DNA of 64,000 bases from Planctomycetota bacterium (GTDB lineage Bacteria; Planctomycetota; UBA1135; UBA2386), in assembly GCA_965228735.1 (NCBI GenBank), contig OZ245838.1, forward strand, positions 800,001-864,000, in the 5' to 3' direction. Below, in pieces: positions 38,214-48,884 of the stretch. The position numbers and the translations under genes are program-made. The stretch's first letter is position 1, and each line of letters begins with the position of its first letter. The notes under the pieces were generated by a model that saw only the letters and a program-made list of their open reading frames with translations, did no database searches and was not told the DNA's origin.

Positions 38214-39548
38214 ATGACGTGGTCCGCACACTCGCTTCTCTCGACGCTGCCGCAGGGTGCCGGCCTGTTCAAACCGAGCGAGCAGGCGCAGGCGCCGCAG
38301 GAGCCCGAAGGGTTCTGGTTGTGGCTCTACGAGCACCAGCTCACGGCGCAGTGGATCGGGCTCGGTGGGCTCGTCGCGGCGGCCGTGCTCACCTGGTTCG
38401 TCACGTGGCTGCTGCTGCTGCCGCTGCTCGGCCGCCTCATCAAGCGGAGCAAGTTCACGTGGGATGACGCGTTCCTCGACGCGCGCTTCTTCCGCTGGCT
38501 CGTGAAGCTGTTCCCGGCGCTCGTGATGTTCTCGGGCGTCACGGTGGTGCGCGATCACTTCTATCTCGCCGACACCGCGTACGGCGCGATCCGCAACCTC
38601 GCGGCGGCCGTGATGATGATCTGCGCCGTGCTCGCGATGTGCGGCCTGCTCAACGCGCTGCAGTCGATCTACGCGGCCAGGGCCGGCAGCGCGCGGCGGC
38701 CGATCAAGGGCTACGTCGAGCTCGTCAAGATCTTCCTCGTCGTCGTCGGCGGCCTCGTCGCGATCGCGCTGCTGCTCGGCCGTGACGTCGGTGGGCTGTT
38801 GACGGGCGTCGGCGCGATGACCGCGGTGCTGATGCTGATCTTCAAGGACACGATCCTCTCCGCGGTCGCGTCCGTGCAGCTCGCGAACCAGAACATGCTG
38901 CGCATCGGTGACTGGATCGAGATGCCGAGCGTCGGCGCGGACGGCGACGTGATCGACATCGCGCTGCACACGATCAAGGTGCAGAACTTCGACAAGACGA
39001 TCTCGACGATCCCGACCTATCGCCTCGTCAGCGACACGTTCAAGAACTGGCGCGGCATGAGCGAGAGCGGCGGGCGGCGCATCAAGCGCAGCGTCGTGAT
39101 CGACGTCTCGACGATCCGCTTCCTGACCGACGAGGAGGTCGAGAGCTTCGGTCGGTTCGGGTTGCTGAAGAGCTACATCCTCGACAAGAAGCGGCGGCTG
39201 AAGAAGGAGAACGAGGGCAAGGATGCGGCGTCCTGTGACCTCGATCGGCTGCGGCTCACCAATGTCGGCACCTTCCGCGCCTACATGGTGCGCTACCTGC
39301 GCAGCCTGCCGAAGGTCCACAGCGGCATGACGTTCCTCGTGCGACAGCTGCCGCCGTCCGAGAACGGGTTGCCGATCGAGATGTACCTGTTCACCAACAC
39401 GACGGCGTGGGGCGAGTACGAGGACGTGCAGGCCGACATCTTCGACCACCTGCTCGCAGCGCTGCCCGAGTTCGGGCTGCGCGCGTTCCAGCGACCGACC
39501 GGGGCCGACCTCGCCGGGTTCGTGCGGGCGGAGCAGCAGGCCCCCTGA
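38214..39548 (+). CDS. Mechanosensitive ion channel, MscS family (YbdG-like)
   Basis: GVGAMTAVLMLIFKDTIL, GDWIEMP..GADGDV, VQNFDKTI, NWRGMSESGGRRIKRS, LTNVGTFRAY, EFGLRAFQ. Confidence 0.95.
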   Translation: MTWSAHSLLSTLPQGAGLFKPSEQAQAPQEPEGFWLWLYEHQLTAQWIGLGGLVAAAVLTWFVTWLLLLPLLGRLIKRSKFTWDDAFLDARFFRWLVKLFPALVMFSGVTVVRDHFYLADTAYGAIRNLAAAVMMICAVLAMCGLLNALQSIYAARAGSARRPIKGYVELVKIFLVVVGGLVAIALLLGRDVGGLLTGVGAMTAVLMLIFKDTILSAVASVQLANQNMLRIGDWIEMPSVGADGDVIDIALHTIKVQNFDKTISTIPTYRLVSDTFKNWRGMSESGGRRIKRSVVIDVSTIRFLTDEEVESFGRFGLLKSYILDKKRRLKKENEGKDAASCDLDRLRLTNVGTFRAYMVRYLRSLPKVHSGMTFLVRQLPPSENGLPIEMYLFTNTTAWGEYEDVQADIFDHLLAALPEFGLRAFQRPTGADLAGFVRAEQQAP

Positions 39549-39564
39549 ACTCTCGATCGGGGCG

Positions 39565-39918
39565 TCAGCCGCCGAAGTGCTCGGCGTAGGCGTCGGCGTG
39601 GAACCCGACGTGCCACGTCTTGCCGGTGCGGATCGCGGGCGCGCGCAGGTTGCCCGATGGACCGATCACCACCGAGCGCAGCTCGTCGATGTCGAACTCC
39701 GACTTCTTCGGCTGGAACACCAGCGTCTTCTTGCCCTTCGCGACGACGATCTTGCTCGCGTCACCGAACAGCTCCTCGACCGTGTCGGGGCCGAAGCGCT
39801 CCTTGGCTGCGTTGACCGTCTCCCGGACGGTCGTGCCGGTGCCCTCGAGGGCGGCGTCGGCACGCTTGCAGCTCGTTCAACCCTTGCGGTGGTAGTACCA
39901 GTCGATCTTCTTGGCCAT
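39565..39918 (-). CDS. ArsC/Spx-like thioredoxin-fold selenoprotein candidate (Sec at codon 14, UxxC); absent from ORF track
   Basis: Manual translation MAKKIDWYYHRKG-TGA-TSCKRADAALE...VVAKGKK...GPSGNLRAPAIRTGKTWHVGF... gives 117 aa. The in-frame TGA at 39879-39877 is the first position of CxxC. Confidence 0.88.
39814..39864 (-). promoter_or_regulatory. Candidate SECIS hairpin(s) downstream of the ArsC-like UGA
   Basis: Hairpin 1 starts 13 nt after UGA: CGUGCCG/CGGCACG lower stem, GCCC/GGGC upper stem, UCGA loop. Hairpin 2: GACCGUC-CGGGA-GACGGUC (39832-39814). Confidence 0.5.
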
Positions 39919-40062
39919 GGTATCGATGGATAGCGCGGCGCGTTCGGCTGGTCCACGGTCGATCCTGCGCGTTCGGAGTCGCCGGTCCCGGGGCTCCCAC
40001 CCCTCGCCCGTCGGCGGTACCCTCTCTACGGGGGAGCTTCGACTCGCAACTCAGGAACTACC

Positions 40063-43000
40063 ATGCCCGCCGTCCGCCTCATCGTCACATCGATCCTGGC
40101 CGGAGGTGCGCTCGCACCGCTCACGGCCCAGAATCTGATCGCCAATCTGCAGCCGGCCGGGGGGAGTGCGTCCGGCGGGTTCTTCGAGGGGTTCGCCGTC
40201 GCGGGCAACGGGGCGTTCGCGGTCTTCAGCGCCAACGGGCGTCACGGCCGTGAGCTCTGGGTGACGGACGGCACGCAGGCCGGCAGCGACCTGCTGGTCG
40301 ACCTCGAGCCCGGCGCGAGCGGGTCGTTTCCCGGTGAGTTCGCCGTGCTCGGGAACGAGGTGCTGTTCGCGGCGACCGTGCCAGGGCTCGGTCGTGAGCT
40401 CTGGATCACGGACGGCACGGTTCACGGCACCCGCCTGCTGCGTGACCTCGACCCCGGCTCCGGATCGAGTTCGCCGGACGAGCTCACGACGTTCGGAGGC
40501 TTCGTGTACTTTGCGGCCAACGTTCCCGGGGCCGGGATCGAGTTGTGCCGAACGGATGGCACGACGGCTGGCACCGGGATCTTCGCCGACCTGACGGTCG
40601 GCAGTTCGTCGCCGCGTGAGTTCGCGGTCGTGGGGAACGAGCTCTACTTCACCGCGATAATCGCAGGGGCGGGGCGCGAGCTGTGTCGCACGGACGGCAC
40701 CGCCGCCAACACGGGCCTCGCGGTCGACGTCGTGCCGGGGTCCACGGGTTCGACGCCGACCGACATCGCGCCGTTCGGGAGCGGGCTGCTGTTCAGCGCG
40801 TTCGCCTCCGCGACCGGCCGGGAGGCCTACTTCTCCGACGGCACGGCGGCAGGCACCGTGTTGCTCGCCGACCTGAATCCCGGGCAGAACTCCAACCCGA
40901 TCGAGTTCACGGACCTCGGCGGGCTCGCCGTGTTTCGCGCGACGGGGCCGGCCGGCCGTGAGCTCTACGTCACGGACGGGACGCCGGCGAACACCGCCCT
41001 GTTGCGCGATATCCGGGCCGGGATCAGCAGCGGGGTCACCACCGAGGAGTTCGTCCAGTATCAGGGGCGGGCCTACTTCAGCGCCGACGACGGCGCGATC
41101 GGTCAGGAGTTGTGGAGCACCGACGGCACGCCGGCCGGAACCGGCCCGGTTCTCGATCTGCGGCCCGGCAGTCCGGACTCCGCCCCGGCCGGGTTCGTCG
41201 AGATTGGCGGCGAGCTGTGGTTCGTCGCCACCGATGCCGGCGGTGATCGGGAGATCTGGAAGACGGACGGCACGGCCACCGGAACGGTTCAGGTCATCGA
41301 TCTCGAGGCGTCGTTCTCCGCCCAGCCGGAGGATCTCGTGCCGTTCGGTGGCGGCGCCGTTCTGTGTTCGGCCATCGCGCCGGGCACCGGACGCGAACCG
41401 TTTCACGTCGACGGGACCGTGCCCGGGAGCTATCTGCTCGTCGACACCAGGCCCGCCGCCGGCGACTCGAACCCGGAGGGTTGGACGGAGTTCGCGGGAG
41501 GCGCGTTCTTCGCCGCCAGCGTCACCGGGGTCGGCACGGAGGGATACGTGACGGACGGCACCTCGGCCGGTACGGCCGTCGTCGACCTGCTGCCGGGTGG
41601 CGGCAGCGGTAGGCCCGAACACGCCGTGGCGTTCGGGGGGCGCATCGTGTTCGAAGGCGACGACGGACCGAGCGGTCGTGAGCTGTTCTCAACGGATGGG
41701 ACGCTGGGCGGAACCATCCAGCTCAGTGATGTTCCGGGCGGCAACGGAGTGCAGCCGCGGTTCATGGTCGCAACGTCGACCCATGTGTTCTATCGCGGCA
41801 GCGAGGCGCAGTATGGCAGCGAGTTGCACGTTTCCGACGGGACCCCGGCGGGCACCGGTCGGTTGGCGGATCTGAACCCGGGCTCGCTGTCGTCGAATCC
41901 GAGCGACTTCGCCGTGGCCGGTGATCGCGCGTTCTTCGTCGCCAACGACGGGGTCAGCGGGAGCGAACTCTTCTCCAGCGATGGTTCGCTCGCCGGGACC
42001 GTCTTGCACGACATTCGCCCCGGCACCGTGGGCTCGTCCCCGGACGAGCTCGTCGATCTCCAGGGCAAACTCGTGTTCGTCGCGAACGATGGTTCGCAGG
42101 GTCTCGAACTCTGGTGCTCGGACGGCTCGGTGGCCGGGACCAATCCGATTGCGGATCTCGTGCCCGGTATCGGTAGTTCCTCTCCCCGCGACCTCACAGT
42201 TGCGGACACCCGAGTGTTCTTCACCGCCGCCATCCCGGGGGCCGGTCGGGAACTCTGTGTCACCGATGGTACGGCTGCCGGCACGGGACTCGTCGTGGAC
42301 CTCGTGCCCGGCGGTGTTGGCTCCGTGATTCGTGACCTCCGCGGCGTCGGATCGCGTGCGTTCTTCCTCTACGACGATGGTTCGGGGACGGGCGCCGAAC
42401 TCTGGACCAGTGACGGCACCGCGGCCGGAACGCATCTCGTGCGCGACATCGGCCCGGGCGCGATCGATGGTCCGATCCCGGGTTCGTTGACGTCGATCCT
42501 CGACGGGCAACTGCTGTTGTTCGCGGCGAGCGACGTCGCCAGCGGCATGCAGTTGTGGATCAGCAACGGCACGACTGGGGGAACGCTGCCAGTGACATCT
42601 TTCGGTGTCGGGGGGCGCGGTGCCGTCTCACTCGGACCGTTCCTCGATACCGGCAGCCGCGTGTTCTTCGCCGCCGATGACGGGCTCCAGGGCAACGAGC
42701 CGTGGGTCTTCGACCTCAACGGTTCGGGCGCGGCGTTCGTGCTCAACTACGGCCATGGCTGCTCGACCACTCCCACGACGGTGCCCCGGATCGGCTCGAC
42801 CGGCGGCCTCCCCTCGCCGGGGACCACGACGTTCGCCGTGACCCTCACGAACGCACCCGCGACGACCGCGGCGTTCCCGCTCGTGGCGTTCACGCCGGGA
42901 TCGTTCCTGCTCGGCTCGGGCTGTCGCCAACTCATCGGAGTGCCCTACATCGCGCTGCCGCTCCGCTTCACGGACCCGGTCGGTGACGCCCAGATCCCGA

Positions 43001-43131
43001 TCGGTTTGCCGAACGACCCGAGCTACATCGGGGTCAACCTGTTCTGTCAGTGGGGCGTCATCGCGACGCCGGGACGCTTGCTCGGCGCATTCGATCTCAG
43101 CGACGGGCTGCAGGCCCAGATCGGGAACTGA
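40063..43131 (+). CDS. Secreted ELWxxDGT-repeat (beta-propeller) protein
   Basis: Signal peptide; more than 15 G.EL(W/Y/F/C)..DGT..GT repeats; distinct C-terminal domain. Confidence 0.93.
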   Translation: MPAVRLIVTSILAGGALAPLTAQNLIANLQPAGGSASGGFFEGFAVAGNGAFAVFSANGRHGRELWVTDGTQAGSDLLVDLEPGASGSFPGEFAVLGNEVLFAATVPGLGRELWITDGTVHGTRLLRDLDPGSGSSSPDELTTFGGFVYFAANVPGAGIELCRTDGTTAGTGIFADLTVGSSSPREFAVVGNELYFTAIIAGAGRELCRTDGTAANTGLAVDVVPGSTGSTPTDIAPFGSGLLFSAFASATGREAYFSDGTAAGTVLLADLNPGQNSNPIEFTDLGGLAVFRATGPAGRELYVTDGTPANTALLRDIRAGISSGVTTEEFVQYQGRAYFSADDGAIGQELWSTDGTPAGTGPVLDLRPGSPDSAPAGFVEIGGELWFVATDAGGDREIWKTDGTATGTVQVIDLEASFSAQPEDLVPFGGGAVLCSAIAPGTGREPFHVDGTVPGSYLLVDTRPAAGDSNPEGWTEFAGGAFFAASVTGVGTEGYVTDGTSAGTAVVDLLPGGGSGRPEHAVAFGGRIVFEGDDGPSGRELFSTDGTLGGTIQLSDVPGGNGVQPRFMVATSTHVFYRGSEAQYGSELHVSDGTPAGTGRLADLNPGSLSSNPSDFAVAGDRAFFVANDGVSGSELFSSDGSLAGTVLHDIRPGTVGSSPDELVDLQGKLVFVANDGSQGLELWCSDGSVAGTNPIADLVPGIGSSSPRDLTVADTRVFFTAAIPGAGRELCVTDGTAAGTGLVVDLVPGGVGSVIRDLRGVGSRAFFLYDDGSGTGAELWTSDGTAAGTHLVRDIGPGAIDGPIPGSLTSILDGQLLLFAASDVASGMQLWISNGTTGGTLPVTSFGVGGRGAVSLGPFLDTGSRVFFAADDGLQGNEPWVFDLNGSGAAFVLNYGHGCSTTPTTVPRIGSTGGLPSPGTTTFAVTLTNAPATTAAFPLVAFTPGSFLLGSGCRQLIGVPYIALPLRFTDPVGDAQIPIGLPNDPSYIGVNLFCQWGVIATPGRLLGAFDLSDGLQAQIGN

Positions 43132-44455: not shown

Positions 44456-46825
44456 GTGGACCTGAGCACGTTCGTGCAGCGACTGCGCGACAATCGCGAG
44501 GACGGACCGGGCGTCGTCGATGCCTGGCACCGCACCGAGGCGCGCGCGGCGCGGATGCGACCGGTGCCCGAGTGGCTGCACGAAAAGCTCGTGGATGCGC
44601 TGCGCGCGCGCGGCATCCAGGAGCTCTACAGCCACCAGCGCGAGTGTGCCGACGCGCTGCACGGCGGCAAGAACGTCGTCATCGCGACCTCGACCGCGTC
44701 CGGCAAATCGCTGAGCTACCAGCTGCCGGTGCTCGACGCGCTGCTGCGCGATGGGCTCGATGCGCGCGCGCTGCACCTGTATCCGACCAAGGCGCTGGCG
44801 CGCGACCAGATGGCGGATCTCGAGCAGCTCATCGCGGCCGCGGGCCTCGGTGACGAGCTGCCGGTCGCGGTCTACGACGGCGACACGCCGCCGTCGGTGC
44901 GGCAGGCGATGCGCGAGAAGGGCGCGTGCGTGCTGACCAACCCGCACATGCTGCACCAGGGCATCCTGCCGAACCACACCAAGTGGCAGGGTCTGTTCAC
45001 CGGTCTGCGCTACGTTGTCGTCGACGAGCTGCACACGCTGTCGGGGATCTACGGCTCGCACGTCGCCAACGTGCTGCGGCGGCTGCGGCGGATCTGCCGG
45101 CACTACGGCAGCGATCCGGTGTTCTGCGGCGCGTCCGCGACGATCAGCAACGCCGGTGAACACGGCCGGAAGCTGTTCGAGCAGCCCGTCGAGGTCGTGG
45201 ACGACGACGGCAGCCCCGCGGGCCGCAAGCACTACGTGTTCTTGAACCCGCAGCTCGTGTCCGCCGCGTCCGGCATGCGCGTGCCCGCGAGCGAGTCGGC
45301 GCGCCAGCTCGGCGGCGAATTGCTCGGCAGCGACCTGCAGACGATCTTCTTCGCGCGGTCGCGCAACCAGACCGAGGTGCTGCTCAAGTACCTGCGCGAC
45401 GAGGCCAAGGCGCGCAAGATCGACCAGGGGCGGGTCGCGGGCTACCGCGGCGGCTACCTGCCGAACCTGCGGCGCTCGATCGAGAAGGGGCTGCGCAAGG
45501 GCGAGATCCGGACCGTCGTCTCGACGAACGCGCTCGAGCTCGGCGTCGACATCGGCAGCCTCGACGTCTGCGTGCTCGTCGGCTACCCGGGGACGGTCGC
45601 GAGCACGTTCCAGCGCGCGGGTCGCGTCGGGCGCCGCACGCAGGAGAGCGCCGTCGTGATGGTGGCGCGCTCGTCGGCGATGGATCAATTCCTCGTGCAG
45701 CATCCGGACTACCTGTTCGGCACCCGGCGCGACGCGGTGAGCATCGATCCCGACAACGCGATCATCCTCACGAACCACATCCGCTGTGCTGTGTTCGAGC
45801 TGCCGTTCGATCGCGGCGAGATGTTCGGCGAGGCGGCGGACACCGCCGCCGTTCTCGAGTTCCTGACCGAGGACCTCGGGGTGCTCGTCGAGCAGGGCGG
45901 GCGCTTCCACTACGCCGACCGCACGTATCCGGCCGAGGGCGTGAGCCTGACCGCGGCCGACATGGACAACGTCACGATCCAGGACGTGGAGACGCAGAAG
46001 ATCCTGGCCGAGATCGATCGGCCGTCGGCGATCACGGAGGTGCACGACGGCGCCATCTACGGCCACCAGGGCGACACGTATCTCGTCGAACGCTTCGACT
46101 ACGAGGATCGGCGCGCGTTCGTGAAGCGCATCGACTCGGACTACTACACCGAGGCCGACGTCGAGACCGAGGTCAAGATCCTGCACCTCGACGAGCAGCA
46201 GGATCACCGCGGCTACGTCGCGCACCGCGGCGAGGTGCACGTGAGCACGGTCGCCAAGGCGTTCAAGAAGATCAAATACTACACGCGCGAGAACGTCGGC
46301 ATCGGGCCGATCGAACTGCCGCCCGAGGAGTTCGAGACCGAGGCGACCGCGCTCGTGCTGCAGCCGGAGCTGATCGCCGATCTCGGGCTCAAGCGCGGCG
46401 GCGAGGCGGCGTGCCTGCAGGGCGTCGGCGAGCTGCTCAAGGGGCTCGTGCCGCTGTTCGTGCGCGTCGATCCGGGCGATGTGCGCGTGCTCGCCGAGGC
46501 GCTGCAGCCGCACTTCGAGGCGCCGACGCTGATCCTCTACGACCGCATCCCCAACGGCGTCGGGCTCGCCGAACGCATCTATCGCGTGCACCGCGAGATC
46601 CTCGGCGCGGCGCTCGAGCTCGTGCAGCGCTGCCAGTGCCGCTTCGGGTGCCCGTCGTGCGTCGGCCCGAGCAGCACGCTCGGGGCGCGCAGCAAGGCGG
46701 TCGCGATGGCGATCCTCACGGGCATGCTCGGCGATGGCGCGACGTCGGTGCGAGCGCGGCCCTTGCCCGACAACGGCGCCCAGCTGTCTGGTGAGGGTGC
46801 GGCGGGTGAGGGTGCGGCGTGGTAG
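44456..46825 (+). CDS. mrfA: DEAD/DEAH-box helicase with DUF1998 (MrfA/Hrq1-like)
   Basis: LYSHQ, TSTASGKS, YPTKALARDQ, YDGDTP, DELH, SAT, TNALELGVDIG, QRAGRVGR; C-terminal CQCRFGCPSC. Confidence 0.9.
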   Translation: MDLSTFVQRLRDNREDGPGVVDAWHRTEARAARMRPVPEWLHEKLVDALRARGIQELYSHQRECADALHGGKNVVIATSTASGKSLSYQLPVLDALLRDGLDARALHLYPTKALARDQMADLEQLIAAAGLGDELPVAVYDGDTPPSVRQAMREKGACVLTNPHMLHQGILPNHTKWQGLFTGLRYVVVDELHTLSGIYGSHVANVLRRLRRICRHYGSDPVFCGASATISNAGEHGRKLFEQPVEVVDDDGSPAGRKHYVFLNPQLVSAASGMRVPASESARQLGGELLGSDLQTIFFARSRNQTEVLLKYLRDEAKARKIDQGRVAGYRGGYLPNLRRSIEKGLRKGEIRTVVSTNALELGVDIGSLDVCVLVGYPGTVASTFQRAGRVGRRTQESAVVMVARSSAMDQFLVQHPDYLFGTRRDAVSIDPDNAIILTNHIRCAVFELPFDRGEMFGEAADTAAVLEFLTEDLGVLVEQGGRFHYADRTYPAEGVSLTAADMDNVTIQDVETQKILAEIDRPSAITEVHDGAIYGHQGDTYLVERFDYEDRRAFVKRIDSDYYTEADVETEVKILHLDEQQDHRGYVAHRGEVHVSTVAKAFKKIKYYTRENVGIGPIELPPEEFETEATALVLQPELIADLGLKRGGEAACLQGVGELLKGLVPLFVRVDPGDVRVLAEALQPHFEAPTLILYDRIPNGVGLAERIYRVHREILGAALELVQRCQCRFGCPSCVGPSSTLGARSKAVAMAILTGMLGDGATSVRARPLPDNGAQLSGEGAAGEGAAW

Positions 46826-47736
46826 CCCCGGAGCGCAACAAACTCGGGCGTGACAAACTGCGGCGCGCGTTCCAGGGCGAACGCCAGCGCCGTGGCGGCT
46901 CGGCGGAGCCCGAGCAACGCACCGAACCCGCCGCACCGCCGCGTGGCAACGTCCGCGCGTTCCTCGCGCAGCGTCGCAAGAAGCTCGCGGCTGGCCAGGA
47001 CCCCGACGCGCGACCGGCCGTCGAGCTGCCGCCCGGCGAGGTCGTGCTGAGTCGCGACGGACCGTTGTGGCGCCGCGAGCTGCGCTATCCGCTCGATCAC
47101 GTGCACGGCCGCTTCCGCCTCGACGCGGCGCTCGAGCTCGACGGCGACCACCTCGCGACGATCGCCAAGACCGACGACTTCAGGGCGATCGACCCGCGCC
47201 AGTGCCTGTTCCTCGACACCGAAACGACGGGGCTGTCCGGTGGGGCGGGGACCGTGGTCTTCAACTACGGCTTCGCGTTCTTCCGCGGCGACGAGCTCGT
47301 CGTCGAGCAGCTGTTCCTGCGCGACTTCAGCGAGGAGGCGGCGATGCTGCGACACGTCGCGGCCCGGCTCTGGCAGTATCCCGTGCCCGTCACGTTCGTC
47401 GGCAAGAGCTACGACCGCCACCGCATCGCGACGCGCATGGCGCTGCACAAGCTGCGTTCGCCCGTGCTCACCGCGCCGCACCTCGATCTCTACTACTGCG
47501 CCCGCCGCGCGCACGGTCACGAGCTGCCCGACACGCGGCTCAGGACGGTCGAAGAACGCTTGCTCGCCGTGCACCGCGAGGACGACCTGCCGGGCAGCGA
47601 GGCGCCGGCGGCGTTCCTCGACTGGATCCGCAACGGCCGCGGCCCGGTCGACCGGGTGCTCGAACACAACCGGATCGACGTGCTGAGCCTCTGCACCCTG
47701 CTCGGTGTCCTGGCGGGAGCGGCGCGCGGGGCGTAA
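46819..47736 (+). CDS. mrfB: RNase H-like DEDD exonuclease (YprB/MrfB-like)
   Basis: FLDTETTGLSGGAG, TFVGKSYD, HLDL, DDLPGSEAP, HNRIDVLSL; overlaps the helicase gene. Confidence 0.85.
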   Translation: MVAPERNKLGRDKLRRAFQGERQRRGGSAEPEQRTEPAAPPRGNVRAFLAQRRKKLAAGQDPDARPAVELPPGEVVLSRDGPLWRRELRYPLDHVHGRFRLDAALELDGDHLATIAKTDDFRAIDPRQCLFLDTETTGLSGGAGTVVFNYGFAFFRGDELVVEQLFLRDFSEEAAMLRHVAARLWQYPVPVTFVGKSYDRHRIATRMALHKLRSPVLTAPHLDLYYCARRAHGHELPDTRLRTVEERLLAVHREDDLPGSEAPAAFLDWIRNGRGPVDRVLEHNRIDVLSLCTLLGVLAGAARGA

Positions 47737-47750
47737 TCTGGCGGCTGCAC

Positions 47751-48884
47751 ATGCAGCACTTGTCAGAACCATCGATCGCGCGACGGCTCACAGCGGGCCT
47801 GCTCGCTTCCACCCTGGCGCTCGGCGCCGCCGCGCAGGACGCGCGCCAGCCGACGAAGTCCCTGCCGGACTTCGAGGAGCTCGTCGCGGACTGGAAGGCG
47901 GCGAACCAGGAGTACCACGAAAAGTCCGCGGCGATCCGCGAGACGGCGGACTACCGGGCCGCCGTGAAGGCCAAGGATCGAGCGGCGATGCGCAAGCTCC
48001 TGAGCGCGGTCGAGCGGCCGGACCCCGGTGAGTTCGGGGAGCGCGCGCTCGCGATCGCGGCCGACTACCCGCCGGACCACGCGCTGCGGGTCCTCACGTT
48101 CGTGGCCAACAACCTCTACGACAAGGCGGTGTTCGCCACGATGATGGAGCGCATCGAGGAGGACTTCATCGCCAGTCCCGAGCTCGACGGGATCCTCAAG
48201 AACGGCATGATGATCGCGTCATTCGTCGGCCCGGAGAAGGCCAACGCCGTGTTGCAGAAGGTCATCACGGACAACCCGGCCGGGCTGCCGAAGGCGTGGG
48301 CGCTCTACTGGCAGGGGATGATGCTGCGGCGTCAGGGCGGTTCGAAGGCGACCGCCGAGAAGCTCTGGGCGCGCGCGGCCGAGCTCGCGCCGGGGAGCAT
48401 CGTCGCCGACAAGATCCACGGCCCGAAGTTCGAGGCGGACCGACTCCAGATCGGCATGGTCGCGCCCGACATCGAGGGCACCGACACACAGGGCGCGCGC
48501 TTCAAGCTCAGCGACTATCGCGGCAAGGTCGTCGTGCTCGACTTCTGGGGCTTCTGGTGAGGCCCTTGCGTGGCAATGATCCCACACGAGCGGTCGCTCG
48601 TGGCAAAGCTCAAGAACAAGCCCTTCGCGCTGATCGGCGTCAACAGCGACAAGGACCTCGACTACTACCACGCCGAAGCCAAGGAGAAGCAGGTCACGTG
48701 GCGGTCGTTCTGGTGCGGTGAGGACGGCACCTCGGGCGCGATCCCGTCGAAGTGGAACGTGACCGGATGGCCGACGATCTACGTGCTCGACCACAAGGGC
48801 GTGATCCGCTTCAAGAACGTCCGCGGCAAGGCCATGGACGACGCGGTGGAGACGCTGCTCGCCGAGATGGCGGGCGACCGGTAG
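47751..48884 (+). CDS. Exported TlpA/peroxiredoxin-like thioredoxin-fold selenoprotein candidate (377 aa, Sec270, WUGPC); split in two by the ORF track
   Basis: ORFs 47067..48560 and 48570..48884 are in the same frame, separated only by TGA 48558-48560. Read-through gives LSDYRGKVVVLDFWGFW-U-GPCVAMIPHE...IGVNSD...WNVTGWPTIYVLDHKGVIR; N-terminal signal peptide. Confidence 0.92.
48585..48602 (+). promoter_or_regulatory. Bacterial SECIS-like hairpin
   Basis: Perfect 7-bp stem CACGAGC/GCUCGUG with a GGUC apical loop; 31 nt separate the UGA from the loop. Confidence 0.8.

Follow-up and report, generated by a model that had tools for sequence, protein, structure and literature searches.

A selenoprotein gene of the ArsC-related family NF041106 in a planctomycete, with a predicted SECIS-type hairpin placed far downstream of the UGA behind a probable folded spacer

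The window analysed here is a stretch of 64,000 nucleotides from a contig of a Planctomycetota bacterium. In the gap between mscS (38214-39548, plus strand) and a gene with ELWxxDGT repeats (40063-43131, plus strand), the minus strand carries a frame that consists of an ATG, 116 further codons and a terminal TGA, and that is broken by a single internal TGA at codon 14 (Table 1). The internal TGA stands in the context YYHRKG*TSC, and the frame ends in ...GNLRAPAI...VGF.... By a genome-trained dicodon model, the frame scores +1.22 upstream of the TGA and +0.70 downstream, while the five other frames of the locus score from -0.23 to -1.61; the GC3 of the gene is 0.93. An earlier note on this DNA had described a 117-codon frame in this very gap, with a lone TGA, host-like codon usage and the same C-terminal motif, and had added that the frame escaped the ORF caller; re-reading the window bears out this description, and the frame is absent from the plain list of open reading frames of at least 60 amino acids.

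Table 1. Features of the gene and its mRNA (positions in the window).
Feature	Position	Strand	Evidence
Coding sequence of a 117-aa NF041106 ArsC-family (seleno)protein, U14-T-S-C17	39565..39918	minus	122.2 bits, profile 1-107/107; coding score
In-frame TGA, codon 14, predicted selenocysteine	39877..39879	minus	conserved column; TGC/TGT in Cys homologues; selA co-occurrence
Hairpin 1 (nt 17-47), predicted spacer, without G[G/U] loop	39833..39863	minus	MFE; pairing; synonymous null
Hairpin 2 (nt 48-66), 7-bp stem, loop CGGGA (39825-39821), predicted SelB-binding SECIS	39814..39832	minus	RNAalifold; conservation
Invariant motif G86-P-x-G-x-L-R-A-P94; the thioredoxin-fold Pro follows Ala/Ser and in no case Arg	39637..39663	minus	122 genes

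The TGA at codon 14 is unchanged in the contigs of four out of four assemblies from four studies, which span all 801 bases; three of these are possibly a source of the same DNA, while the fourth, from a slightly different strain, departs at three other letters. A sequencing error can thus be set aside. No match to a sigma-70 promoter or to a minus-strand terminator was found at the gene, and an Rfam scan of 39400-40200 returned no family near its gathering score. Elsewhere in the window (44456-47736, plus strand), a MrfA-type DEAD/DEAH helicase is followed by a MrfB-like RNase_H_2 gene.

When read through the TGA, the protein matches the NCBIfam family NF041106, "ArsC family (seleno)protein", over its full profile and well above the cut-off of 85 bits. 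The genome encodes selA, selB and selD, all above cut-off, as well as a tRNA-SeC(tca), so the Sec machinery that the earlier note wished to see is present; selD itself contains a TGA. A gene of the same type occurs in 33 of the 61 genomes searched (own genome included), with one TGA in each, and the TGA falls in the same alignment column in 30/30 loci. Among the 32 relatives with the gene, selA was missed only in G028, whose genome is 73% complete. The NF041106 cut-off is exceeded in 85 of 301 genomes across the phylum; among the 84 other than our own, a selA match is present in all 72 that have the TGA form and missing in 10 of the 12 that have only the Cys form, although these genomes are kin and the counts are not independent. 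The family was assembled as 122 distinct genes from 131 loci, leaving out seven duplicates, one Asp copy (L107) and one further far-type locus (L132); the partial matches L060 and L061 stand outside the set. It comprises 97 genes with TGA and 25 with Cys, the homologues that the earlier note had proposed to look for, and the TGA alternates only with TGC or TGT, one Asp copy excepted. This copy (L107, G120:C12) is the second family member of its genome, has D-x-x-C in place of the Sec/Cys motif, and is accompanied by a TGA copy. The nine codons upstream of the TGA show 90% amino-acid identity across 29 relatives.

Homology extends to either side of the TGA, Cys homologues exist, relatives conserve the TGA and the Sec machinery is present; all of this supports the earlier inference of a true selenoprotein, and selenocysteine is almost certainly what the in-frame UGA encodes. 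It is extremely improbable that the TGA truly stops translation, arose as a pseudogene lesion, encodes Trp or is an error: although some database proteins have W at this place and most are truncated to 82-94 aa, the same TGA recurs in 97 genes, alternates with Cys codons (and once Asp), tracks selA, follows well-conserved codons, is identical in four assemblies, and is found in a gene that is also terminated by TGA. Public gene calls (P0002, P0003, P0099-P0121 and most others) either translate the TGA as Trp or start after it, in which case the entries are the fragments of 82-94 aa just mentioned. As a result, most database entries of the family lack its redox motif.

The protein is not of a new kind. 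The 2008 GOS survey (PMC2398784) lists an 'Arsenate reductase 2' with UxxC under cd03032, and a table in a 2026 review (PMC13188914) cites that survey for an 'Arsenate reductase-like protein, UxxC'. The unannotated selenoprotein candidate of the earlier note therefore belongs to a family already catalogued.

In the AlphaFold model of the protein (pLDDT 88), the core is of the glutaredoxin type and carries an alpha-beta-beta-alpha insert. Among known structures, Spx and YffB come closest, with TM of about 0.5 (the best VIA match, to YffB, has Z 7.7 and rmsd 5.0 with 93 aligned), and the core also matches glutaredoxins and GST N-domains over about 72-76 residues. Only ArsC/Grx-labelled clusters were returned from the ESM Atlas, and glutathione synthetase is present in the genome. 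Across the 122 genes, Arg11, U/C14, Cys17, Ala37, Gly86, Gly89, Leu91, Pro94 and Gly105 are invariant, and the residue before Pro94 is Ala in 118 and Ser in four. The equivalent place is occupied by Arg-Pro in Spx and in the classical ArsC-type protein of the same genome; we take this Arg to be ArsC Arg107. The moderately favoured function is that of a stand-alone selenol/thiol-disulfide oxidoreductase, using U14 and C17 on a glutaredoxin-like core. The protein is probably no classical arsenate reductase.

No conserved neighbourhood was found among close relatives, and synteny is restricted to one tight Planctomycetaceae clade with Cys. Redox genes are scattered among the neighbours of related genes (TrxB-like in one case, DCC1-like in two, molybdopterin oxidoreductase in three), as are mscS in three and a MIP channel in one. 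Six longer hits are fusions, of which the sole recurring informative partner is DUF3052-like, in three near-identical proteins.

Two other functions were considered. A redox-sensing transcription regulator similar to Spx is unlikely: Spx gives the best sequence match in the PDB (E 9e-9) and the best Foldseek match, it shares the xTSC motif, and the conserved surface of the family is basic, but the Spx HMMs score 14 bits against cut-offs of 123/152, and where Spx has its all-helical domain, an alpha-beta-beta-alpha insert is predicted (TM about 0.5, rmsd 7-8 A). A predicted complex between a Cys homologue and the alpha CTD of its own RNA polymerase scored 0.00, which counts neither for nor against this reading.

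A Sec-type arsenate reductase is slightly less likely still. The family name and a match to Pfam ArsC (E 0.0015, 19.2 bits, below the cut-off of 24) speak for it, and an oxyanion site could be formed by the His at -4 (100/122 genes), the invariant Arg11 and Arg92, and Lys/Arg61. One neighbour of a related gene is a MIP channel, and some MIPs transport arsenite. Against this, the 96 flanking ORFs, 66 of which have a Pfam hit, include no ars-operon family, and the genome has a separate classical ArsC-type gene. In a weak hhalign alignment (probability 56%), Lys/Arg61 may stand for Arg60 of ArsC. According to PMC3169414, classical ArsC requires HX3CX3R and the triad Arg60/94/107; the query has H-X3-U-X3-K plus a second Cys, and Ala or Ser stands in place of the Arg before the Pro in 122/122 genes.

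The unusual feature of this gene is the position of its SECIS, which the earlier note had left unexamined. Nucleotides of the mRNA are numbered here with the U of the UGA as 1. The bSECISearch model, as presented in section 5 and Fig. 2A of PMC13188914, has 16-37 nt between UGA and loop, and the canonical criteria are a loop of 3-9 nt with G[G/U], a stem of 4-16 bp and an MFE of -7.5 kcal/mol or lower. In the MFE fold of the query, two hairpins stand side by side, the second abutting the first directly. Hairpin 2 is the only one with a SECIS-type G[G/U] loop, and its loop sequence, 7-bp stem and energy (-11.7 kcal/mol) all agree with the canonical values; its loop begins at nt 55, 51 nt after the UGA, and is thus well outside the spacing of the model. 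Hairpin 1 nearly fits the published model, since it lies at 24 nt and its loop begins with G, but it has no G[G/U] and its upper stem is 3 bp long instead of 4-16.

Hairpin 1 was tried as the SECIS and given up in favour of hairpin 2: its folding is under selection (p=0.0025 in the query), but it has no conserved G[G/U] loop. The query sequence alone is not decisive for a distal SECIS. The same peptide would give the loop and a 6-bp stem with a chance of 0.08, the energy of hairpin 2 has p=0.054, and against shuffles the first 60 nt have z 0.38 and the first 80 nt z -2.2. Hairpin 2 was recognised only after comparison with the other Sec sites of the same genome.

These sites are numerous. A non-exhaustive scan with selection by hand gave 36 in-frame TGA sites genome-wide, a very large candidate selenoproteome; deep-Sep gives 43 as the record for known families. 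The candidates include SelD, four TlpA/ResA UxxC proteins, two BCP/PrxQ, MsrA, two deiodinase-like proteins, a SelW-like protein, AhpD-like, SelL-related, VPGUxxT (with two TGAs), Grx and HMA proteins. The second UxxC gene in which the earlier note saw mutual support does exist, about 8.7 kb away, but beside this number it lends little weight. This gene, a TlpA/ResA-like UxxC candidate at 47763-48884 of the window (plus strand; TGA at 48558-48560), has a GGUC-loop hairpin at nt 35, as do its three paralogues. Of the 35 hand-picked sites other than the query, 30 are followed by a hairpin whose G[G/U] loop falls at nt 21-35, compared with 15% of random windows, and three of these near hairpins have the loop CGUGA that is found in most far-type genes of the family (see below). 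The five Sec candidates without a qualifying near hairpin show no clear copy of the far architecture.

Several candidates are of interest in their own right. Three proteins with FG-GAP/VCBS-like repeats, as judged by eye (L147, L153 and L167; G000:C1 406817, 3065085 and 5872224), have an in-frame TGA followed by Cys in the motif U-C-x-[S/G/F]-x-x-PQFVD and an AGUUC-loop hairpin at nt 23 in each; they have no NCBIfam hit at 1e-6 and are possibly an undescribed selenoprotein family. Four paralogues with the motif [N/D]GHPLG[C/Q]T-U-[G/N]NG (L154, L162, L170 and L171; G000:C1 3484699, 4855623, 6929513 and 7087946) have SECIS-like hairpins and likewise no NCBIfam hit at 1e-6. A small exported-looking protein (L146, G000:C1 1929-2561, minus strand) has two GxGU motifs, hence two TGAs, with a G[G/U] hairpin after each and no NCBIfam hit.

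Within the NF041106-type family, the SECIS-type hairpin is found at one of two places. The 97 TGA homologues comprise 53 with a near hairpin only, 38 with a far hairpin only, four with both and two with neither; among the 25 Cys homologues, the far hairpin is found in none and the near hairpin in one. Near-type genes mostly have a GUU-containing loop that starts at nt 25-28. To avoid the circularity of groups defined by their loop, the genes were also grouped by absence of the near hairpin: in every one of these 40 TGA genes, nt 56-57 read G[G/U] and at least 5/6 stem pairs form, where genome codon usage would be expected to give about 9.6 far hairpins from the same 40 peptides. The letters of the far loop occur in 7/57 near-type genes and in 0/25 Cys genes. 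The same fixed rule, applied to a held-out metagenome set (5/32 of which are duplicates), assigned 18 of 26 TGA genes to near only, three to far only, none to both and five to neither; the rule is strict, and these five all keep GUU at the near place, three of them with a 4-bp stem. One gene, L182, is a possible intermediate, with an intact near AGUU hairpin and a far CGUGA loop on a broken stem.

The far hairpin is conserved as RNA. RNAalifold found it unaided in 42 far-type genes, with four compensatory (two-sided) pairs; 95.9% of its cells are paired in these rows, which were selected for the stem, and 87.1% in an unselected alignment of 30 genes, a value reached in 0/500 shuffles. G56 is invariant in 42/42 far-type genes. 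The stem is kept despite changes of the encoded peptide (TVRETV, ATGTVV, TAREVV), and pair 51:63 varies by synonymous third-position swaps (CG in 36 genes, GC in three, UA, UG and GU in one each). Against synonymous recodings, nt 46-69 fold with z -1.78 in far-type genes (43/44 below 0), as opposed to -0.09 in both near-type and Cys genes. When this genome was scanned with a covariance model of the far-type region, no hit came up but the gene itself (next E 0.07); being tied to its own coding sequence, the model does not bear on other families.

RNAalifold gave no consensus for hairpin 1, whose register varies among genes, nor any useful consensus for 30 mixed near and far genes; in the 42 far-type genes, 82.5% of its cells are paired. 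Its folding is nevertheless strong, as nt 13-48 have z -2.65 against synonymous recodings in far-type genes (44/44 below 0), -1.64 in near-type and -0.53 in Cys genes, although 7/25 Cys genes also fold well here (z<-1.645). In constrained folds of far-type genes, the folded region ends 0-4 nt before hairpin 2. Between near and far genes, the loop G is shifted from nt 26-27 to nt 56, about ten codons, which is the length of hairpin 1. If hairpin 1 is counted as one step, which is a simplification, the path from UGA to loop is 18-25 in far-type genes (21 in the query), compared with 21-24 nt in near-type genes. The letters GUU are retained at nt 26-29 in 14/42 far genes.

How often the hairpin has moved is less clear. 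In quick, poorly resolved trees the far type needs 8-13 changes, yet a test for a single origin does not reject it (p-AU 0.6). Well-supported branches carry just one independent near/far pair. Hairpin 2 is missing in the two Cys genes next to far-type genes on a starred branch. Because the homologous genes are kin and a single origin is not rejected, the exclusivity of near and far hairpins may rest on one switch, possibly a single evolutionary event.

These observations can be combined in a mechanism. With the UGA in the A site, the first 11-13 nt or so downstream would be held in the ribosome; the account of decoding in PMC4513850 gives about 11 nt of occluded downstream mRNA and leaves only structure outside the ribosome available to SelB, a figure that may carry over to the query gene. 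Because hairpin 1 starts just past the mRNA so covered, it would remain folded and loop out about 30 nt. Hairpin 2 adjoins it without a gap, so that the G[G/U] loop would come to lie about 21 steps from the UGA, within the 21-24 nt of a near SECIS, where SelB-GTP-Sec-tRNA would bind the loop and decode the UGA. That hairpin 2 is a distal SECIS is probable. For the mechanism as a whole, in which the UGA is read as Sec and the folded spacer brings the distal SECIS within reach of SelB, we estimate a probability of roughly 0.7; from the computed folds, their conservation and covariation, and the mutually exclusive distribution of the two hairpin places, we infer Sec insertion, SelB binding and the role of the spacer.

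Hairpin 2 could also be a SelB site that acts at a distance, without any spacer, hairpin 1 being a leftover of the ancestral near SECIS or having another role. Hairpin 1 does cover the place of the near SECIS, its register is variable and it lacks a consensus; this is nonetheless an unlikely reading, since nt 13-48 beat their synonymous recodings in every far gene, and do so more strongly than in near genes, and the folded region ends within a few nucleotides of hairpin 2. In addition, spacing is normal at the remaining Sec sites of the genome, which gives no hint that its SelB can act over a longer distance.

Conversely, hairpin 1 might be a SECIS with an atypical loop, and hairpin 2 might serve in ribosome pausing, in mRNA stability or as an enhancer. 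The distance of hairpin 1 is the usual one, its loop in the query starts with G, and two TGA genes (L089, L118) have a mismatched hairpin-2 stem. This is the more improbable of the two: the loops of hairpin 1 are not conserved while G56 is invariant, the loop of hairpin 2 matches those of normal-distance hairpins in the same genome, and hairpin 2 is lacking in Cys genes and in most genes of the near type.

The protein finding amounts to an annotation correction, and the RNA signal matters more. What is probably new is the far-placed SECIS-type hairpin with its folded spacer, the protein family being known already. The literature searched, which covered few subscription journals, contained no earlier account of a bacterial SECIS that is distal or built of two hairpins; PMC1794560 and two preprints add nothing on the point. 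Some bacterial selenoprotein genes fit no SECIS model, as stated in section 5 of PMC13188914 and in PMC12013277, PMC9312934 and PMC10778597, and BSepDB (PMC13326102) counts 87.4% of its entries as having a canonical SECIS and terms the remainder uncharacterised. If it is true, the split architecture would explain some of the catalogued bacterial selenoprotein genes, approximately 13%, that lack a canonical SECIS. It is about an even bet that a bacterial SECIS can move some ten codons downstream within one family, with a spacer hairpin looping out the mRNA and SelB reading the folded distance, and that this constitutes a general second class. Should the spacer model hold, SECIS predictors will need a rule for folded distance. 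Engineers could then move the SECIS away from active-site codons, and the design of recombinant selenoproteins would be freer because the sequence of the spacer is much less constrained than the SelB loop. The family offers a natural three-way comparison in the same gene, between a near SECIS, a far SECIS and Cys with none, which pinpoints the bases to mutate.

At the protein level, nothing distinguishes the query from NF041106 (ArsC_rel_Se_1), which it matches over the full length and above cut-off, with UxxC and Sec/Cys pairs; the far SECIS-type hairpin is absent from the features described for that family in the record available. With Spx (PDB 1z3e, 6gho) and YffB (1rw1) the protein shares a thioredoxin-type core, the xTSC motif and the C-terminal ...P...G[FY] motif, but its insert is predicted to be alpha-beta-beta-alpha where theirs is all-helical, and it has Ala for Arg before the Pro and Sec for Cys. 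At the RNA level, hairpin 2 resembles the bSECISearch consensus in its 7-bp stem, its 5-nt loop, its energy below -7.5 kcal/mol, and a loop with G within its first two positions and G/U next; it differs in its spacing of 51 nt, as opposed to 16-37, and in the separate hairpin that stands in between. As in the SECIS of E. coli fdhF, following the description in PMC4513850, the structure available to SelB would be the part that lies outside the ribosome when the UGA is decoded. In fdhF, this part belongs to a single stem whose lower portion unwinds, whereas the query has two side-by-side predicted hairpins, the first of which would act as a spacer.
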